From assembly GCF_000012925.1 (NCBI RefSeq), contig NC_007517.1:1140001-1172000 (forward strand): a stretch of DNA of 32,000 nt. Direction: 5' to 3'. This document shows positions 11,774-21,194 of this stretch, piece after piece; the stretch's first letter is position 1; each line of letters opens with the position of its first letter. Both the position numbers and the translations under genes were made by a program. The notes below the pieces were generated by a model. That model made no database searches, was not told the origin of the DNA, and saw only the letters and a list, made by a program, of their open reading frames with translations. The stretch is from Geobacter metallireducens GS-15. GTDB lineage: Bacteria > Desulfobacterota > Desulfuromonadia > Geobacterales > Geobacteraceae.

Positions 11774-11798
11774 AAAAAACCCGGCCTGGGCCGGGTTT
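11774..11798 (-). terminator. Intrinsic terminator after the mog gene
   Basis: Minus strand AAACCCGGCC-cag-GGCCGGGTTT followed by TTTTTT. Confidence 0.75.
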
Positions 11799-11823: not shown

Positions 11824-12315
11824 TCAGGTGGAGGGAGCGCAGTCACGGGTGTCCCCCTGGATCTTCTCCACGGCGTGGGGTACCGCCGGCCAGACCGCCT
11901 CCAGGTTCTCGATGGCCCCCCTGGGGCTGCCGGGGAGGTTGATGATGAGCGCCTGTTTCCGGATGCCGGCCACGGCCCGGGAGATCATGGCGTGGGGGGT
12001 CTTTTCGAGACTCCTCATCCGCATCACCTCGCCGAAGCCCGGGATCACCCGGTCCAGGACCTTCATGGTGGCATCGGGGGTGACGTCGCGGGGAGATACC
12101 CCGGTGCCGCCGGTGGTGAGTATCAGGTCGTAGAGGCCCGAATCCGCCCACTGGCTGAGCGTGGCCGTGATGAGATCCGCCTCGTCGGGGATGATCTCCG
12201 TATGGGCGGTCTCGACGCCACGTTCCGCCAACCAGGCAGAGAGGGCCGGGCCGCTGGCGTCTGCCCGCTCTCCCCGGGAACCCTTGTCGCTCAAGGTGAG
12301 AATTGCCGCTCTCAT
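11824..12315 (-). CDS. mog: Molybdopterin adenylyltransferase (MogA/MoaB family)
   Basis: [22 protein letters not shown]...[20 protein letters not shown]...INLPGSP. ATGA start/stop overlap with moaC. Confidence 0.88.
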
Positions 12316-12794
12316 GCCGGTTCCTCCCGCTGCCAGGTGCCGCTTTTCCCTCCCTCCTTGAAGAGGAGGCAGATATCGCCGATGGTGATCCCCTTGTCGG
12401 CTCCCTTGCACATGTCGTAGATGGTGAGGGCCGCCACCGCCGCCGAGGTCATGGCCTCCATCTCCACGCCGGTCCGCTCGAAGGCCCGTACCGTTGCCTT
12501 CACCGTGATGGTCCCGGTCTCCGGCTCGGTCTCGAAGTCAACCGCGGCATGGTGGATGGCCAGCGGGTGGGAGAGGGGGATCAGTTCCGGGGTCTTCTTG
12601 GCGGCGGCGATGCCCGCCAGTCGCGCCACGCCCAGGACATCCCCCTTGGTGGTCCGTCCGGCCAGGAGGTCTGCCAGCGTCTCGGGTTTCATGGCCACCG
12701 TGGCGGCGGCGGTTGCGGTGCGCAGGGTAGGCTGTTTTCCGCTCACGTCCACCATGATGGCCCGGCCCTGGTCGTCGAAGTGATTGAAGGACAT
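12312..12794 (-). CDS. moaC: Cyclic pyranopterin monophosphate synthase
   Basis: 160 aa starting MSFNHFDDQGRAIMVDVSGK, with ...KGDVLGVARLAGI..AKKT.ELIPLSHPL... and EMEAMT..AVAALTIYDMCK. Confidence 0.95.
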   Translation of the reverse strand: MSFNHFDDQGRAIMVDVSGKQPTLRTATAAATVAMKPETLADLLAGRTTKGDVLGVARLAGIAAAKKTPELIPLSHPLAIHHAAVDFETEPETGTITVKATVRAFERTGVEMEAMTSAAVAALTIYDMCKGADKGITIGDICLLFKEGGKSGTWQREEPA

Positions 12795-12808
12795 ATCGGT
12801 AATCTCCC

Positions 12809-14026
12809 TTAGCGTTCCAGCATGGTCACATCGTCCCTCAGGAGCATCAGGTCCACCTCGCTCCCGGCGTGGACGATGGACGCTTCCAGGGGGAGCAGCG
12901 CCAGGCCGTTGGCCCTGACCATGGTCCTGAGGATTCCAGTGTGCTGGTCGCCTGCGGTAGAGGCCACGAAGCGCCCTTCCTGCACCGTCACCTGGACCCG
13001 GAGGAAGTTGACCTTGCCCGGTTTCTTTTTCGCGTCTTCCCGGAGGATGGCCTTGACAAAAGGGCGCACCACGCGCCGGTGCCCCATCATCCGCAGCAGG
13101 GCCGGACGGGCAAAGAGCTCGAAGGTGACCATGGTGGAGACGGGGTTGCCGGGAAGCGAGAAAACCGGCTTCGCCCCGTGCATCCCGAAAGCCGTGGGGC
13201 CGCCGGGTTTCATGTCCACCTTCCAGAATATCTGCTCCACACCCATCTCGGCCAGGACGTCCCGGACCAGGTCCCGGTCGCCGGCGGAAACTCCGGCGGA
13301 GGTGATGAGGGCGTCGGCCTTCAGCCCTTCGGCGAGCTTTTCCCGGTGACTTTCCCGGTTGTCCCGGGCAATGCCGATGACGATCGGTTCTGCGCCGCAC
13401 TGGCGCACCGCCGCCGCCAGCGACAGGGTGTTGGAGTTGATGATCTTGCCCGGAACCGGGGGCTCGCCCAGCTCGACCAGTTCGTCGCCGGTGGAGAGGA
13501 TGGCGACGCGGGCCTTGCGGAAGACCGGCACCAGGGCCTTGCCGAAGGAGGCGAGCATGCTGACCTCGGGGGGCTGGATAAGGGTGCCCGCCGGGATGAC
13601 GGTCTCACCGGTGGCTACGTCCTCGCCCTTGAAACGGATGTGCTGGCGTTCCTTCACGGGGGCCACGACCCGGATGGCGGCGCCGTCGTCCTCAGTCTCC
13701 TCTACGGGGACCACGGCGTCGCAGCCGGGGGGGAGGGGAGCGCCGGTCATGATCCTGATGGCGCAGCCAGACTCCACTGCTCCGGTCACCTCGCCGCCGG
13801 CCGGGATATAGCCGGTCACCTTCAGTGCTGCCGGGATGGTTGCGCAGTCGGCGGCTCGCACGGCAAAGCCGTCCATGGCGGAGTTGTCGCAGAGGGGCAT
13901 CTCCCAGGGGGCCACCACGTCCTCGGCCAGGACGCGGCCTGCGGCCTCCAGAATTCCCACCCGCTCGATGCCGAGGGGGGTTACGCGATCGAGAATGATG
14001 TTGCGGGCTTCGGTGAAAGACGGCAC
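12809..14026 (-). CDS. moeA: Molybdopterin molybdenum/tungsten transferase
   Basis: GTG start after GGAAGGAG. SFTEARNIIL..., CDNSAMDGFAVRA, ILSTGDEL and ITSAGVSAGDRD blocks. Confidence 0.95.
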   Translation of the reverse strand: MPSFTEARNIILDRVTPLGIERVGILEAAGRVLAEDVVAPWEMPLCDNSAMDGFAVRAADCATIPAALKVTGYIPAGGEVTGAVESGCAIRIMTGAPLPPGCDAVVPVEETEDDGAAIRVVAPVKERQHIRFKGEDVATGETVIPAGTLIQPPEVSMLASFGKALVPVFRKARVAILSTGDELVELGEPPVPGKIINSNTLSLAAAVRQCGAEPIVIGIARDNRESHREKLAEGLKADALITSAGVSAGDRDLVRDVLAEMGVEQIFWKVDMKPGGPTAFGMHGAKPVFSLPGNPVSTMVTFELFARPALLRMMGHRRVVRPFVKAILREDAKKKPGKVNFLRVQVTVQEGRFVASTAGDQHTGILRTMVRANGLALLPLEASIVHAGSEVDLMLLRDDVTMLER

Positions 14027-14724
14027 GGTTGGATTTCTCCTTCCTCGACAGATGTGGTGCTGAACGATTGCGGCGCGGCGAGACGGCCCGCTGCCAGGTG
14101 GATGCGTTCGCCCTTCAGGCGTTCCAGATGCTCCGGATCGTGGGTGGTCATGACAACGGTGGTCCCCCGCGCGGGGAGTGCGGATATGATGTTCTCCAGC
14201 AGGTCACTCGTGTTGCGGTCCACGTTGGCGAGGGGCTCATCCAGGAGGAGCACCTTGGTCTCAAGGGCCAGTGCCCGGGCCAGGGCCACCCGCTGGGCCT
14301 CGCCGCCGGACAGTTCCCGGGAGCGGCGGTGCCCGAAGCCGGCAAGACCCACAAGTGCCAGCGCCTCCTCGACTCGCTGCTTCAGGCCGTCGCCGTGGCC
14401 GCCGCGCAGCTTCAGGCCGTAGGCCACGTTGGCGGCGACGCTGCCGGTGAAGAGATAGGGGGACTGGTGGACGAGGGTCACGTCACGCCGCTGGCGCTGG
14501 AGGGTGCTGTTGCTCCAGAGCACCGTCTCCCCCTCGAAGACGATCTCGCCTGATGTCGGCGCCGTGAGAAGGGCCAGATGGGAGAGGAGGGTGCTTTTTC
14601 CCGCTCCGTTGGCGCCGGTGAGGATGTAGAGGCGGCCCGCACGGAGGGTGAGCTGGCCGATGTCCAGGACGGTCCGGGAGTCGTAAGAGGTCTGGATGCT
14701 GTCAAGTCGGTAGCGGATGCTCAC
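13981..14724 (-). CDS. tupC: ABC transporter ATP-binding protein (tungstate TupC-like)
   Basis: Walker A GANGAGKST, signature LSGGEAQRV, Walker B LLLDEP. The 3' end overlaps moeA by 46 nt. Confidence 0.85.
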   Translation of the reverse strand: MSIRYRLDSIQTSYDSRTVLDIGQLTLRAGRLYILTGANGAGKSTLLSHLALLTAPTSGEIVFEGETVLWSNSTLQRQRRDVTLVHQSPYLFTGSVAANVAYGLKLRGGHGDGLKQRVEEALALVGLAGFGHRRSRELSGGEAQRVALARALALETKVLLLDEPLANVDRNTSDLLENIISALPARGTTVVMTTHDPEHLERLKGERIHLAAGRLAAPQSFSTTSVEEGEIQPCRLSPKPATSFSIA

Positions 14725-14730
14725 GAAGGG

Positions 14731-15417
14731 TTACCTCTGCTGCAGGGCGTTGAGGGCCATGTTGATCATCAGGGCCACCGTCATGAGGATGAGCCCCAGG
14801 GCAAGTCCCAGGGCGAATTCCCCCTTGCCGGTCTCCATGGCGATGGCGGTGGTCATGGTGCGGGTGTACCCGCGGATGTTGCCGCCGAGCATCATGGCGA
14901 CTCCCACCTCGGCGATGACCCGGCCGAAGCCGGCGATCACCGCCGCCATGATCCCGAAGCGCATCTCCACCACCAGCCGGCGGATGCTCTCGAATGGTCC
15001 GGCCCCCAGGGTGAGGGCCGTGGGAACGATGCGTGGGTCGGCCCCTTTGATGGCGCTCATGGTCAGGTTGGCCACGATGGGGATCGCCAGGAGCGTCTGC
15101 CCCACCACCATGGCCCAGGGGGTGAAAAGGATTCCGAACCCTCCCAGGGGCCCCTGGCGGCTGATGAGGCTGTAGACGAAAAGGCCCACCACCACCGTCG
15201 GCAGGGCCATGAGGGTGTTGAGAAGCGTCACCACGGCCCGCTTGCCGGTGAACTCCGTCACCGCCACCGCCACCCCGGCCGGCACGCCGGCCAGGGAGGC
15301 GAAGAGGGTCGACCAGAGCGACACCACCACCGAAACGGTTACCGCGCTCACCACGTCAGGGTCCCGGGAGGTGATCAGTTCCAGAGCAGTTTTGAGAGAT
15401 TCGGAAAAAAAGTCCAT
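14731..15417 (-). CDS. tupB: ABC transporter permease (tungstate TupB-like)
   Basis: 228-aa polytopic membrane protein of the BPD_transp_1 type, encoded between the binding protein and ATPase genes. Confidence 0.85.
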   Translation of the reverse strand: MDFFSESLKTALELITSRDPDVVSAVTVSVVVSLWSTLFASLAGVPAGVAVAVTEFTGKRAVVTLLNTLMALPTVVVGLFVYSLISRQGPLGGFGILFTPWAMVVGQTLLAIPIVANLTMSAIKGADPRIVPTALTLGAGPFESIRRLVVEMRFGIMAAVIAGFGRVIAEVGVAMMLGGNIRGYTRTMTTAIAMETGKGEFALGLALGLILMTVALMINMALNALQQR

Positions 15418-15471: not shown

Positions 15472-16281
15472 CTACTTCTTGTAGATAAAGAACACCGGCT
15501 CGCCGTGGGCCTTGTAGCCGGAGATGATCTTCAACCCTTCGGGACCGGTGACGTAGTCGATGAATTTCATGGCCAGGTCATACTTCACGTGGGGGAATTT
15601 TTTCGGGTTCACGGCGATGATTCCGTAGGGGTTGAAGAGTCCCTTCTCCCCTTGGAAGACGATGGCGAGGTCAGTCTTCTGCCCCTTGAAGGCGTTGTAG
15701 GTACCCCGGTCGGCGAGGGTGTAGCCGCGCCGCTCGGTGGCCATGGTGATGACCGGCCCCATCCCCTGGCCCGCCTCGATGTACCAGCTCCCCTTGGGGT
15801 CGGTGCCGGCGGCCTTCCAGAGTTCCAGTTCCTTCATGTGGGTGCCGGATTTGTCACCCCGGGAGACGAAGGTGGCCTGCCTGGCGGCGATCAGCTTCAG
15901 GGCTTCGGCGGCGGTCTTCGCCTTGGCGATGCCGGCCGGGTCGTTCTTGGGACCGATGATGACGAAGTCATTATACATGACATCCTTGCGGTTCACGCCG
16001 AAGCCGTCGGCCACGAACTTGTCCTCCAGTTTGCGGGCGTGGACGAACACCACGTCCACGTCGCCGGCTTCACCCAGTTTCAGGGCCTGCCCCGTCCCCA
16101 CGGCAATTACGTCAACCTTGCAGTTGTTCTTTTTTTCGAAGGGAGGAAGAAGCACCTTCAGGAGACCCGAGTCCTGGGTGGAGGTGGTGGTGGACATCTT
16201 GAGGCGCTCTTCGGCCGAGGCGGCGCCGCAGAGGACTACCAAGGCAACGAGAGTAAGGATAATGCCGCGCAGCGAATTCAT
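15472..16281 (-). CDS. tupA: Periplasmic tungstate/oxyanion-binding protein (TupA-like)
   Basis: Signal peptide, then the TTTSTQDSGLL and GDKSGTH motifs characteristic of TupA-type binding proteins. Confidence 0.85.
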   Translation of the reverse strand: MNSLRGIILTLVALVVLCGAASAEERLKMSTTTSTQDSGLLKVLLPPFEKKNNCKVDVIAVGTGQALKLGEAGDVDVVFVHARKLEDKFVADGFGVNRKDVMYNDFVIIGPKNDPAGIAKAKTAAEALKLIAARQATFVSRGDKSGTHMKELELWKAAGTDPKGSWYIEAGQGMGPVITMATERRGYTLADRGTYNAFKGQKTDLAIVFQGEKGLFNPYGIIAVNPKKFPHVKYDLAMKFIDYVTGPEGLKIISGYKAHGEPVFFIYKK

Positions 16282-16337
16282 ACAACCTCCTTGTGCGTGT
16301 GGTTATGGTTGGCGGAATGAGGTGTCATTTTGGGGTT

Positions 16338-16364
16338 ACTATATCATTTTTCCCTGCATTTGAA
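16338..16364 (-). promoter_or_regulatory. Possible internal promoter (extended -10) for tupA
   Basis: Minus strand TTCAAA - 15 nt - TATAGT with TGA immediately upstream (TGnTATAGT). Spacer is short. Confidence 0.35.
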
Positions 16365-16399
16365 GCCGTTGAATCTGGATCCCGTTTCTTCCGGGTGAA

Positions 16400-16433
16400 G
16401 GATGCGGCGGGCGGCCCTGTTTCCGCCGCATCC
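16400..16433 (-). terminator. Hairpin after porin gene (weak or partial terminator)
   Basis: 11-bp stem GGATGCGGCGG / CCGCCGCATCC, but only two U residues follow on the minus strand. Confidence 0.4.
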
Positions 16434-16443
16434 AGCGCCGGTG

Positions 16444-17688
16444 CTAGAAGATGATCTGGGCCTGGAGCCGGTACTGCTTGTCGTCGGTCTTCGTCCTCTG
16501 GTCGTGGGTGTTGGTGACGTCGGCCTGGAGCTTCAGGTTGTGCTTGCTGAAGTAGTACGAAACCGCTCCCTGGGTGTCAGTGATCAGGTCGTTGGCCGTG
16601 TCGCGGTTGGGGTCGACGTAGGAGTAGCGGAAGGCCACTTCCACGGTCTTCGGAATGATGCAGTAGCCCGCCTGGGCATAGAAGCCGTGGGCCCTCAGGG
16701 TCTTGTTGCTGGTCTGGCCGTCGGCCTGGCCTATCAGGTATTCGGCCTGGGCCGAGGCGCCGAGCCACTTGAAGGCGGCGTCCACGCCCCAGGCGTTGAC
16801 GTCGATCTTCTCGCTGGTGGCGAAGGTGCTCAGCCCCTTGCCGAGCCAGCCGCTGGAGCCGGCCAGGGTGATGGCGTTGGTCTCCAGGGTGGTGGTGGCC
16901 GTCTTGTTCAGCGTGTTTCGGTAGTAGTTGGCGCCGATGGAAAGGAGCGGTTTCGGGCTGGTGTCGAGGTCGCTCTCGGAGTAGGCCATTTTGCCGAAGG
17001 GGTTGATGGTGGCCCGGGCAGCGATGGCGTTGTCGTTGGAGCTGCGGACGGTGCTCTGGCCGGCGCCGCCGTAAATGCCGAACTCATAGGTGGCGAGTCC
17101 CTTCATGATGTCGCCGTGGAGCTTCGCCCCCACATCGTAGCCCGGACGGAACATGTCAGAGGCCATGGAGCGGTCCACAAACTGCTGGCTTCCGGAGGAG
17201 TTCAACCACTGGCGGCCGAAGGGAACCTTCGTCTGGCCGGCAAGGAGTTGCACTTCGTCAATAAGCCGGTAGTTCAGGTAGGCGTGCTCGAGCATTTTGG
17301 AGGAGCCGCTGTTGGCGAAATCCACCTGGTAGAGGTAGGTCAGGTCCTTGGTAAAGGCGTAGCCTTTCAGCCAGAACTTGATCCGTTTAGCCTCCCACTT
17401 GCTGGAGTCCGGTTTCGAGGCACTGTTTTCCTCCAAGTCGGTGAAGGTGTAGCGGGTCTGGAGCCGACCACCGAGGGTAAGCTGGAACTTCTCGTCCGGG
17501 GAGGTGAGGGTGAAGCCGTTTCCAACCTTGTAATCGAACGCTTTGCTCTTGGTCACTTCCTTGTAATCGGCTTCGGTGATGACACCCTTTTCTTTGAGGA
17601 TGTCCTCCAAGGTCTTGGCCTCCGCTGTGGTGCAGGCCATAGTGGCCGCAAGAATGGCCGAAACTGCCGCGATGTTTCTGTGTTTCAT
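16444..17688 (-). CDS. Outer-membrane porin, phosphate-selective porin O/P (OprO/OprP)-like family
   Basis: AGGAGGAA RBS. Signal peptide ending TTAEA. Alternating beta-strand pattern and C-terminal ...YRLQAQIIF (terminal Phe typical of OM barrels). Confidence 0.78.
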   Translation of the reverse strand: MKHRNIAAVSAILAATMACTTAEAKTLEDILKEKGVITEADYKEVTKSKAFDYKVGNGFTLTSPDEKFQLTLGGRLQTRYTFTDLEENSASKPDSSKWEAKRIKFWLKGYAFTKDLTYLYQVDFANSGSSKMLEHAYLNYRLIDEVQLLAGQTKVPFGRQWLNSSGSQQFVDRSMASDMFRPGYDVGAKLHGDIMKGLATYEFGIYGGAGQSTVRSSNDNAIAARATINPFGKMAYSESDLDTSPKPLLSIGANYYRNTLNKTATTTLETNAITLAGSSGWLGKGLSTFATSEKIDVNAWGVDAAFKWLGASAQAEYLIGQADGQTSNKTLRAHGFYAQAGYCIIPKTVEVAFRYSYVDPNRDTANDLITDTQGAVSYYFSKHNLKLQADVTNTHDQRTKTDDKQYRLQAQIIF

Positions 17689-17761
17689 GTGTTCCTCCTA
17701 GGGGGGTATAGTTGTGAGTCACGCTCACCATGCCGGAACAGGCCAGGCCTGCCGGTGCACA

Positions 17762-17797
17762 ACAAAAAGGGCCTCTCTCCAAACGGAAAGAGGCCCC
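17762..17797 (-). terminator. Intrinsic terminator serving as expression platform of the upstream riboswitch
   Basis: Minus strand GGGCCUCUUUCC-GUUU-GGAGAGAGGCCC (12 bp) followed by UUUUUGUUG. It sits between the aptamer and the porin RBS. Confidence 0.65.
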
Positions 17798-17821
17798 ATA
17801 CCCCACGCAGGGGAATAAAGA

Positions 17822-17920
17822 GTTCTCCTTTCCAAAAGGGAGGCACCGCCGTTTCCAGCGGAACCCGTTGACCGCATACCGTGAGGCTCTGCGCCTGGTA
17901 GGTATGACGGATCGGAGAAA
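17822..17920 (-). promoter_or_regulatory. Moco/Tuco (molybdenum/tungsten cofactor) riboswitch aptamer, copy 2
   Basis: Minus strand CUCCGAUCC...CCUCACGG...CCGCUGGAAACGGCGG-UGCCUCCC-UUUUGG-AAAGGAG carries the conserved CUCCGAxCC, GCCUCCC and AAAGGAG blocks. It is collinear with the copy at 20954-21050. Confidence 0.7.
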
Positions 17921-17933
17921 AAACTAGTATTTA

Positions 17934-17957
17934 AAATTGGTACTTAAATACCAATTT
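17934..17957. promoter_or_regulatory. Perfect 9-bp inverted repeat (candidate operator) over the -10 box
   Basis: AAATTGGTA-cttaaa-TACCAATTT. Confidence 0.45.
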
Positions 17958-17973
17958 AGGGGATGCGTGTCAA
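17945..17973 (-). promoter_or_regulatory. Sigma-70 promoter candidate driving the riboswitch-porin transcript
   Basis: Minus strand TTGACA - 17 nt - TATTTA. Confidence 0.5.
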
Positions 17974-18037
17974 CTGATAAAATGAAATATGCTGATTATT
18001 ACCAAACGGAAGGGGTCTGTTCAGACGTTATGACGGT

Positions 18038-18880
18038 TCATTCCCCCACCGCCGCCAGTGGCGGTTCCAGCAGCACCTCGTCGAATTCCATGTGGAGGAG
18101 GTTCACGTAGATCATCCGGTGGCGGAGCGATTCCCCCTCACCCAAGAGGATCTTGCAGGCTTCTGCCACCTGGAGGCTTGCCACCACCGCCGGGGTGAAG
18201 GAGGGGTTGCCGAGCTGCGATTCAACTCCCTTCGGCTCCGACCAGTTGCCGAAGAGGGATGGGACGATGTCGTCCCCGGGAAGTTGGGAGGCCACTTGCC
18301 CGTACCAGCCGCCTATGGCGCCATGCACGAGGGGAATGGAAAGCCCTCGGCAGCATTCCGCCAGTTCAATGCGTGTGGCGATGCTGTCCAGGCCGTCCAT
18401 CACCACATCGGACCCCGCCAGTATCCCTTGACCGTTTTCCCGGGAAAATGAAAGCTGAAGCGGGGTAACGGTGACCGCAGGGTTGATCTCACCGACGCGC
18501 GCCGCGGCGACCTCAACCTTTGGATGGCCGAGGAAGGCAGGGGAGGAAAGGATCTGGCGGTTCAGGTTGTGCTCCTCGAAGATGTCGGGGTCCACCACCA
18601 CGAGGTTTCCCACCCCGAGGCGGGCCAGTTCCTCGATCAGGTACCCTCCGAGGCCGCCGCTGCCGATGATGACCGCACAGCTACGGCAGAGGCGGAGCTG
18701 GTTGCCGACGGTGATGGTCTGGCGGTTGCGCTGGTAGCGAGCCGGCATGATGCCCTGTTCGAGAGCCGCCTCCTCCACGCGGCCGAGGGTGAGGCCGAAC
18801 CGCTCGGCGGCCTCCACCTGGGCCGTCCAGGGAAAAAGGCCCGCTGGCGCCGCTGCCGTGATGAAGTCGTACAGCTCCAT
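18038..18880 (-). CDS. ThiF/MoeB/HesA-family E1-like adenylyltransferase
   Basis: Rossmann motif IIGSGGLGGYLIEELARLGVGNLVVVDPDIFEEHNLNRQ. The ATG lies 1 nt after the MoaD stop codon. Confidence 0.85.
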   Translation of the reverse strand: MELYDFITAAAPAGLFPWTAQVEAAERFGLTLGRVEEAALEQGIMPARYQRNRQTITVGNQLRLCRSCAVIIGSGGLGGYLIEELARLGVGNLVVVDPDIFEEHNLNRQILSSPAFLGHPKVEVAAARVGEINPAVTVTPLQLSFSRENGQGILAGSDVVMDGLDSIATRIELAECCRGLSIPLVHGAIGGWYGQVASQLPGDDIVPSLFGNWSEPKGVESQLGNPSFTPAVVASLQVAEACKILLGEGESLRHRMIYVNLLHMEFDEVLLEPPLAAVGE

Positions 18881-20911: not shown

Positions 20912-20953
20912 GAACTGATTGCTCCCTTTCTATAGATAGCGTTTCTCATTGAT

Positions 20954-21050
20954 GGTTCTCCTTTCCGAAAGGGAGGCGCCGCCGTTTCCGGCGGCACCCG
21001 GTGGCCCTGGGCCGTGAGGTTTCCCTGTTAGGCTTGCAGGCTCGGAGAGT
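20954..21050 (-). promoter_or_regulatory. Moco/Tuco riboswitch aptamer, copy 1
   Basis: Minus strand ACUCUCCGAGCCUGCAAGCC...GGGAAACCUCACGG...GCCGCCGGAAACGGCGGC-GCCUCCC-UUUCGG-AAAGGAG, directly upstream of aor. Confidence 0.72.
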
Positions 21051-21194
21051 GTTGGTTGTTATCTGCAACTATTACGGGTGTCGAATTCGTGCAAGGCCAA
21101 GGCGTCCGAGTGATGCCGCGGAGGCGTAGCAGCGCTACGCCGCACAAGAGCATCGCGAAGGGCAACGCCGGGATTGCGCGAAAGCGGCAGCCGT

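Follow-up and report, generated by a model that had tools for sequence, protein, structure and literature searches.

The OprP and OprO porins of Pseudomonas aeruginosa (PDB 2o4v and 4rjw), which are phosphate- and diphosphate-specific, respectively, and belong to the family PF07396 (Porin_O_P), are the best matches in the PDB, both by sequence and by fold, of the porin Gmet_1042 encoded in the 32,000-nt stretch of the Geobacter metallireducens chromosome analysed here (positions 1140001-1172000; hereafter, the window). Like them, Gmet_1042 is predicted to be the outer-membrane partner of a high-affinity binding-protein ABC importer for a tetrahedral oxyanion; however, it is under the control of a cofactor riboswitch instead of phosphate starvation, has TupABC and not PstSCAB as the partner, shares with OprP and OprO 16-19% identity in the structural alignment, and carries a conserved N-terminal helical segment (residues 25-47) ahead of the barrel. 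Tungsten is used in G. metallireducens by the AOR and by the class II benzoyl-CoA reductase BamB. The passage of tungsten and molybdenum across the outer membrane via porins has been merely presumed in published papers (PMC3417520), and a literature search, confined largely to openly accessible papers, revealed neither a published tungstate/molybdate porin nor a porin arrangement of the kind described below.

The P3-less variants of the Moco RNA were associated with the tungsten-cofactor genes by Regulski et al. (2008, PMC2408646), who noted multiple Moco RNAs in G. metallireducens and whose text mentions a porin zero times. In the RF01055-controlled tup, mod and moa operons of that work, as in the window, a P3-less aptamer lies upstream of tungstate-transport and molybdopterin genes, and in the window it stands alongside a terminator platform; unlike those operons, the first regulated gene here and in several other families is that of an outer-membrane channel. 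The tup genes of G. metallireducens were named as such in its genome paper (PMC2700814), the Table 1 numbering of which gives the locus name Gmet_1042, and the same gene was called 'phosphate-selective porin' in the genome paper of G. bemidjiensis (PMC2996986). In this tungsten-dependent organism, which is amenable to genetics, the locus provides a named candidate gene together with its own read-out of regulation, the Tuco-type riboswitch.

Locus Layout and Riboswitch Leader

The preliminary description of the segment 16444-17920, which comprises the porin coding sequence and its leader, had placed an OprO/P-like porin gene first behind a cofactor riboswitch with a terminator and ahead of the tupA-tupB-tupC-moeA-moaC-mog genes, and this arrangement was borne out by the RF01055, domain and NCBIfam matches, with all the components on the minus strand (Table 1). 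The best NCBIfam match of TupA was tung_bind_TupA, and the TupA, TupB and TupC models were the best or near-best ones for the three importer proteins, all under the equivalog cut-offs (257/400, 201/320 and 131/400 bits, respectively), so that the importer is a candidate for tungstate or for molybdate.

Table 1. Coordinates of the features of the porin-tup-moe-moa-mog array and its leader (positions of the window)
Feature	Position	Strand	Evidence
Candidate sigma-70 promoter TTGACA-N17-TATTTA	17945..17973	-	read from sequence; consensus match only
Moco/Tuco riboswitch aptamer RF01055, P3-less variant	17809..17929	-	63.5 bits vs gathering 36
Intrinsic terminator (riboswitch expression platform)	17760..17797	-	13-bp stem, 8 GC pairs, then U-run
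OprO/P-family porin Gmet_1042, 414 aa	16444..17688	-	PF07396 E 6e-28
Intercistronic GC hairpin, 11-bp stem, without U-tract	16400..16433	-	also kept in locus L006
Porin-tupA spacer, 162 nt; moaE position in relatives	16282..16443	-	alignment
tupA-type periplasmic oxyanion-binding protein	15472..16281	-	PF12849 E 8e-54
tupB-type ABC permease	14731..15417	-	NF041773 201 bits (cut-off 320); NF038017 233 bits
tupC-type ABC ATPase	13981..14724	-	PF00005; NF041774 131 bits
moeA, molybdopterin molybdo/tungsto-transferase	12809..14026	-	MoeA_N, MoCF_biosynth, MoeA_C domains
moaC, approximate start	12312..12790	-	PF01967 in C-terminal part of ORF 12312-13400
mog/moaB	11824..12411	-	PF00994; NF006932 161 bits vs cut-off 158
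Operon-end intrinsic terminator, strong	11777..11798	-	9-bp stem, then TTTGTT

The aptamer was matched over its full length (model positions 1-135), with the P3 columns deleted in the alignment, and is followed by the terminator, whose stem occupies 17797-17768 and precedes UUUUUGUUG; the fold stability of the leader corresponds to a z of -4.96. An alternative pairing of -19.5 kcal/mol, found with the nascent RNA folded up to the 5' arm of the terminator, joins GGAAAGGAG at the 3' side of the aptamer to CUCUUUCC of that arm, and we infer in it the antiterminator expected of a ligand-dependent off-switch. The P3-less aptamer with the bound ligand would let the terminator form, while in the ligand-free RNA the GGAAAGGAG stretch would be held by the 5' arm of the terminator and the RNA polymerase would read into porin-tupABC-moeA-moaC-mog. 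The TTGACA of the candidate promoter is kept in the leaders of the locus L006 and of a same-genus genome, G102, while the promoter scan flagged a different site, TGAACA-N17-AATAAT, at 18023-17995. A second P3-less aptamer is located in the window at 20942-21059, ahead of aor.

The comparison with the genome G102 (L098:9433-9700 against the window 17680-18040) showed that the homologous promoter-aptamer-terminator is joined there directly to tupA in an otherwise identical layout, adh-aor-moeB-riboswitch-tupABC-moeA-moaC-mog, and no homologue of the window's porin was found in the G102 genome. Therefore, the leader belongs to the tup operon, the porin gene being its optional first member and dispensable in G102.

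Two to four Moco/Tuco aptamers were observed in the aor-moeB-porin region of several relatives (L017:1233-6806; L073, L081, L082), with tandem aptamer pairs directly 5' of the porin among them. A perfect palindrome AATTGGTA-N6-TACCAATT at 17935-17956, present in a single copy in the window and overlapping the candidate -10 box, was considered as a conserved operator and rejected, the exact copy being present only in this genome and in no relative's leader.

Gap between the Porin Gene and tupA

The weak hairpin that had been reported between the porin gene and tupA was recovered as the GC stem at 16433-16400, followed by CCUUCACCC, with the U-tract absent; the gap sequence, together with the hairpin, is conserved with the locus L006. 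In the nearest relatives (L004, L005, L017 and L010), the gap is filled by a gene of the 125-129-aa MoaE (PF02391) with short spacers, while the G. metallireducens genome, the gap included, yielded neither moaE nor a moaE remnant; its lack of moaE was already published (PMC2700814). Since the nearest relatives have MoaE here, the gap marks where a gene was lost from an operon-like array and is not an obvious border of transcription units. It may be added that the published absence is now mapped to the exact spot, the window 16282-16443 against L004:8242-8680 and L005:8298-8675, and that the porin frame of the metagenome-assembled locus L004 stays open through the moaE position as far as 8656, owing either to a faulty assembly or to a genuine change.

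The gap is also the place to weigh the possibility that the riboswitch controls the porin alone, with the hairpin ending the transcript and tupABC-moeA-moaC-mog being read from a promoter of their own. We consider this rather unlikely. The stable 11-bp hairpin does stand right after the stop codon, and the 162-nt gap, conserved with L006, holds an extended -10-like word, TGaTATAGT, at 16346-16338 (about two dozen such words per window are expected by chance, by our estimate); however, the hairpin is devoid of a U-tract, the promoter scan found no promoter-like site in the gap, the same leader drives tupA directly in G102, moaE with its short spacers makes an operon layout of the same interval in the nearest relatives, and a separate tup promoter would mean the lack of cofactor control, unlike in the relatives. 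Thus, the co-transcription of the porin gene with tupABC-moeA-moaC-mog appears to be the better reading, in which the likely role of the GC hairpin 3' of the porin gene is to stabilise the porin segment of the transcript and not to terminate it.

Family, Predicted Fold and Residues of the Porin

The membership of Gmet_1042 in the OprO/P family, proposed earlier from the letters of the gene, was upheld by both the sequence and the predicted fold. The PF07396 model covers residues 76-413 with 98.5 bits (cut-off 20.9), behind a Sec signal peptide read at about residues 1-24 with the cleavage between AEA and KT. In the phmmer search of the PDB, OprP and OprO were matched at E 1e-6, one other match being insignificant (E 0.19), and a profile of 57 homologues brought OprO and OprP at E 7e-12. 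The AlphaFold2 model is a beta-barrel (pLDDT 87.2, pTM 0.80), whose top Foldseek matches were OprP 2o4v and OprO 4rjw with the TM of 0.68-0.70 (for 2o4v, TM 0.69/0.70, E 3e-22), and a 16-strand OprP-like barrel is accordingly what the model predicts.

By the HMMER alignment, the counterparts of the OprP residues K13, K25, R34, D94, S124/S125 and R133 are K54, K67, R75, E134, S164/S165 and R173, respectively, while OprP K121 aligns to W161, K15 to G56, K30 to T71 and K126 to G166, and the outer arginine ladder of OprP (R218, R220, R226, R242) falls in an unalignable region. The porin subfamily has about twenty conserved basic positions; R102, K/R104, K154, S164, R173, R225, R354, K386 and R407 are retained throughout the clade, down to the deepest relatives. 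The conserved basic residues, taken along the chain irrespective of which of them face the lumen in the coordinates, would be consistent with an anion-selective pore.

Within the Geobacteraceae porins, conservation was observed to be highest in the short N-terminal helical segment AKTLEDxLKEKGVITEADYKEV (window 17617-17548, residues 25-47), with A24, L27, E28, L31, K34, G35 and E39 invariant in the 57 porin sequences; the segment precedes the barrel, has a low model confidence, and in the deep tup-linked clade is either absent or altered.

Conservation of the Linkage to Tungstate/Molybdate Uptake Genes

The gene order was compared over 58 loci from GTDB genomes, in about 22 of which, all of Geobacteraceae, the order porin-(moaE)-tupA(one or two copies)-tupB-tupC-moeA-moaC-mog was found, including loci with porins only 42-50% identical and without the riboswitch. 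No riboswitch was found in the distant Geobacteraceae loci L019-L042, and the pairing of the porin with tup is thus independent of it. Of 400 genomes sampled in the phylum, 43 contained a porin homologue; tupA or modA stands directly beside the porin in 15 of the 29 loci taken from that sample, in at least nine other GTDB families, with TupA, where it is the neighbour, 49-68% identical to that of the window and the porin identity falling to 27-35%. An RF01055 aptamer immediately precedes the porin gene in L068, L070, L073, L075, L081 and L082 and in none of the five non-tup loci, and di-TOBE molbindin genes adjoin the porin in some loci. Even allowing for the non-independence of kindred loci, chance cannot explain why a single-copy gene adjoins the porin in half of the loci, drawn from many families. 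Hence, the tie of the porin to the tungstate/molybdate uptake genes, which had been drawn from this single genome, holds far beyond it.

In the tree, for which a midpoint root only was used, the clades nearest to the Geobacteraceae-type clade are all tup-linked, which suggests that the tup linkage may be ancestral and that the copies linked to ppx (see below) may be derived.

The same comparison bears on the alternative that the channel serves organic anions (dicarboxylates or carboxylates), in connection with the alcohol/aldehyde metabolism of adh-aor, and not metal oxyanions. The genes adh and aor do lie just upstream of the porin region in the window, the G. bemidjiensis homologue is reported to lie downstream of a DctB/D-like two-component pair (PMC2996986), and certain homologues adjoin unrelated genes, such as EAL-GGDEF; nevertheless, a riboswitch of its own precedes aor, moaD-moeB intervene between aor and the porin, the distant loci keep tupA and not adh/aor beside the porin, and the nearest structural relatives are phosphate and diphosphate channels, which makes an organic-anion substrate very improbable.

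Proposed Function

Taken with its leader and neighbours, Gmet_1042 is fairly probably an oxyanion channel of the OprP type, repressed by the cofactor and supplying TupA, and as such the porin is a credible candidate for the crossing of the outer membrane by tungstate and molybdate. It would be an outer-membrane anion channel, probably a trimer of 16-strand barrels, encoded by the first gene of a unit that would be shut off when the tungsten/molybdenum cofactor is plentiful. Tetrahedral oxyanions, i.e., tungstate, molybdate and probably phosphate, would diffuse along the conserved basic residues to the periplasm, where they would be captured by the high-affinity TupA. Against this reading speak the reported place of the G. 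bemidjiensis homologue behind the DctB/D-like pair and the tup operon of G102 that has no porin gene.

The control by phosphate starvation, which the preliminary description had regarded as the contrary case, is not what was found, as judged from the leader (RF01055 with a terminator) and from the neighbours (tup, moe and moa); among the scanned neighbours of the porin, there were no pst/pho genes. If tungstate or molybdate were preferred over phosphate by the channel, the comparison with OprP/OprO would show how a small change of an arginine/lysine pore retunes the oxyanion selectivity, and many genes annotated as 'phosphate-selective porin' would need re-annotation.

Polyphosphate-Linked Copies and Other PF07396 Genes

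The commonest context of the porin subfamily apart from the tup genes is HHH_5-CHAD-Ppx/GppA-porin, a polyphosphate neighbourhood. The CHAD-Ppx-linked paralogues of other Geobacteraceae belong to the same subfamily, are 50-63% identical to Gmet_1042 and up to 80% identical to the tup-linked copies of the same genome, and have the same basic residues; they differ by the polyphosphate-gene neighbours and the absent riboswitch, and the paralogue is missing from G. metallireducens. The array, with divergent DUF155 and LUD/CCG genes, was observed in many Geobacteraceae, in L013, L018, L020, L027, L029, L043 and L051 about 2 kb upstream of each porin. In the G. metallireducens genome itself (C1:967755-971251), chad-ppx and DUF155 are kept, with only about 270 nt and no porin gene between ppx and DUF155. 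The genome has no further member of the porin subfamily; of its PF07396 genes besides Gmet_1042, one encodes an ExtI-like conduit porin and the other is an orphan. Therefore, Gmet_1042 is the genome's sole channel of its type, apparently under cofactor and not phosphate control. Together with the porin-less G102, which has the operon in the same genus, these sister paralogues beside the polyphosphate genes provide natural controls.

The tup-linked L028 and the ppx-linked L051 are on one contig, with their porins 80.5% identical, and the ppx-linked copies are interleaved with the tup-linked ones in the tree. A common clade of all the ppx-linked copies was rejected by the AU test (p 0.0003, for a group named after the tree had been seen), and thus they arose repeatedly or were homogenised with the tup copy; the interleaving implies that the pore is probably not exclusive for tungsten/molybdenum. 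The residue positions 75, 134, 159, 161 and 165 were tested for a difference between the tup and other contexts, and no robust separating residue was found among them, weak trends being seen only at 161 and 165 and not significant on independent contrasts. Thus, position 161 is M, W or F in 23 of the 33 tup/mod-linked copies and in 3 of the 28 others, which amounts to about three independent contrasts (p about 0.25). The exclusivity of the channel for tungsten/molybdenum is, therefore, doubtful, and the word 'dedicated', applied to it earlier, is not supported in view of the near-identical paralogues beside the polyphosphate genes, the AU test, the lack of a robust specificity residue and the G102 operon that goes without the porin. 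A separate clade of the tup-linked porins was also tried and rejected, since the tup label had to change 14 times among 46 rows, which is not below the number for shuffled labels.

The same copies are among the grounds for the reading under which Gmet_1042 is the phosphate/polyphosphate-selective porin of the species, as annotated, with its position at tup being a historical accident that has no role in tungsten/molybdenum uptake. It is in keeping with the PF07396 membership and the counterparts of OprP R34, D94, S124, S125 and R133, with the CHAD-Ppx exopolyphosphatase genes adjoining the sister paralogues, and with the loss of the ppx-linked paralogue here, by which Gmet_1042 became the sole remaining copy; against this, the leader is a cofactor riboswitch and not a Pho-type one, with pst/pho absent among the scanned neighbours, the tupA/modA adjacency and the upstream riboswitch persist across at least nine families at 27-35% porin identity, the frequency of this adjacency to a single-copy gene is beyond chance, and the outgroup clades are tup-linked. 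As a whole, we hold an accidental position at tup to be improbable.

Returning to the cofactor-repressed channel that feeds TupA, a bolder extension is possible, if tentative and short of what we would expect: the tup/mod-linked OprP-like porins may represent an old and widespread class of channels tuned to tungstate/molybdate, with an altered constriction (Trp, Met or Phe in place of OprP K121, and often Ala in place of S125), which would be the missing outer-membrane part of Tup/Mod uptake, while the CHAD-Ppx copies in Geobacteraceae would have arisen by later duplication and been turned to phosphate.

Among the described systems, PF07396 also includes ExtI, the porin of the selenite/tellurite-reduction cluster ExtHIJKL of Geobacter (NF040900); Gmet_1042 scores 34.8 bits against it, far under the cut-off of 150, and the ExtI-like gene of the genome is a separate locus. 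The second PF07396 gene of G. metallireducens (C1:570745-577266, L062) lies between a gene with a rhodanese domain and multihaem cytochrome genes, with a LysR regulator adjoining, and this locus is an ExtHI-like porin-cytochrome cluster.
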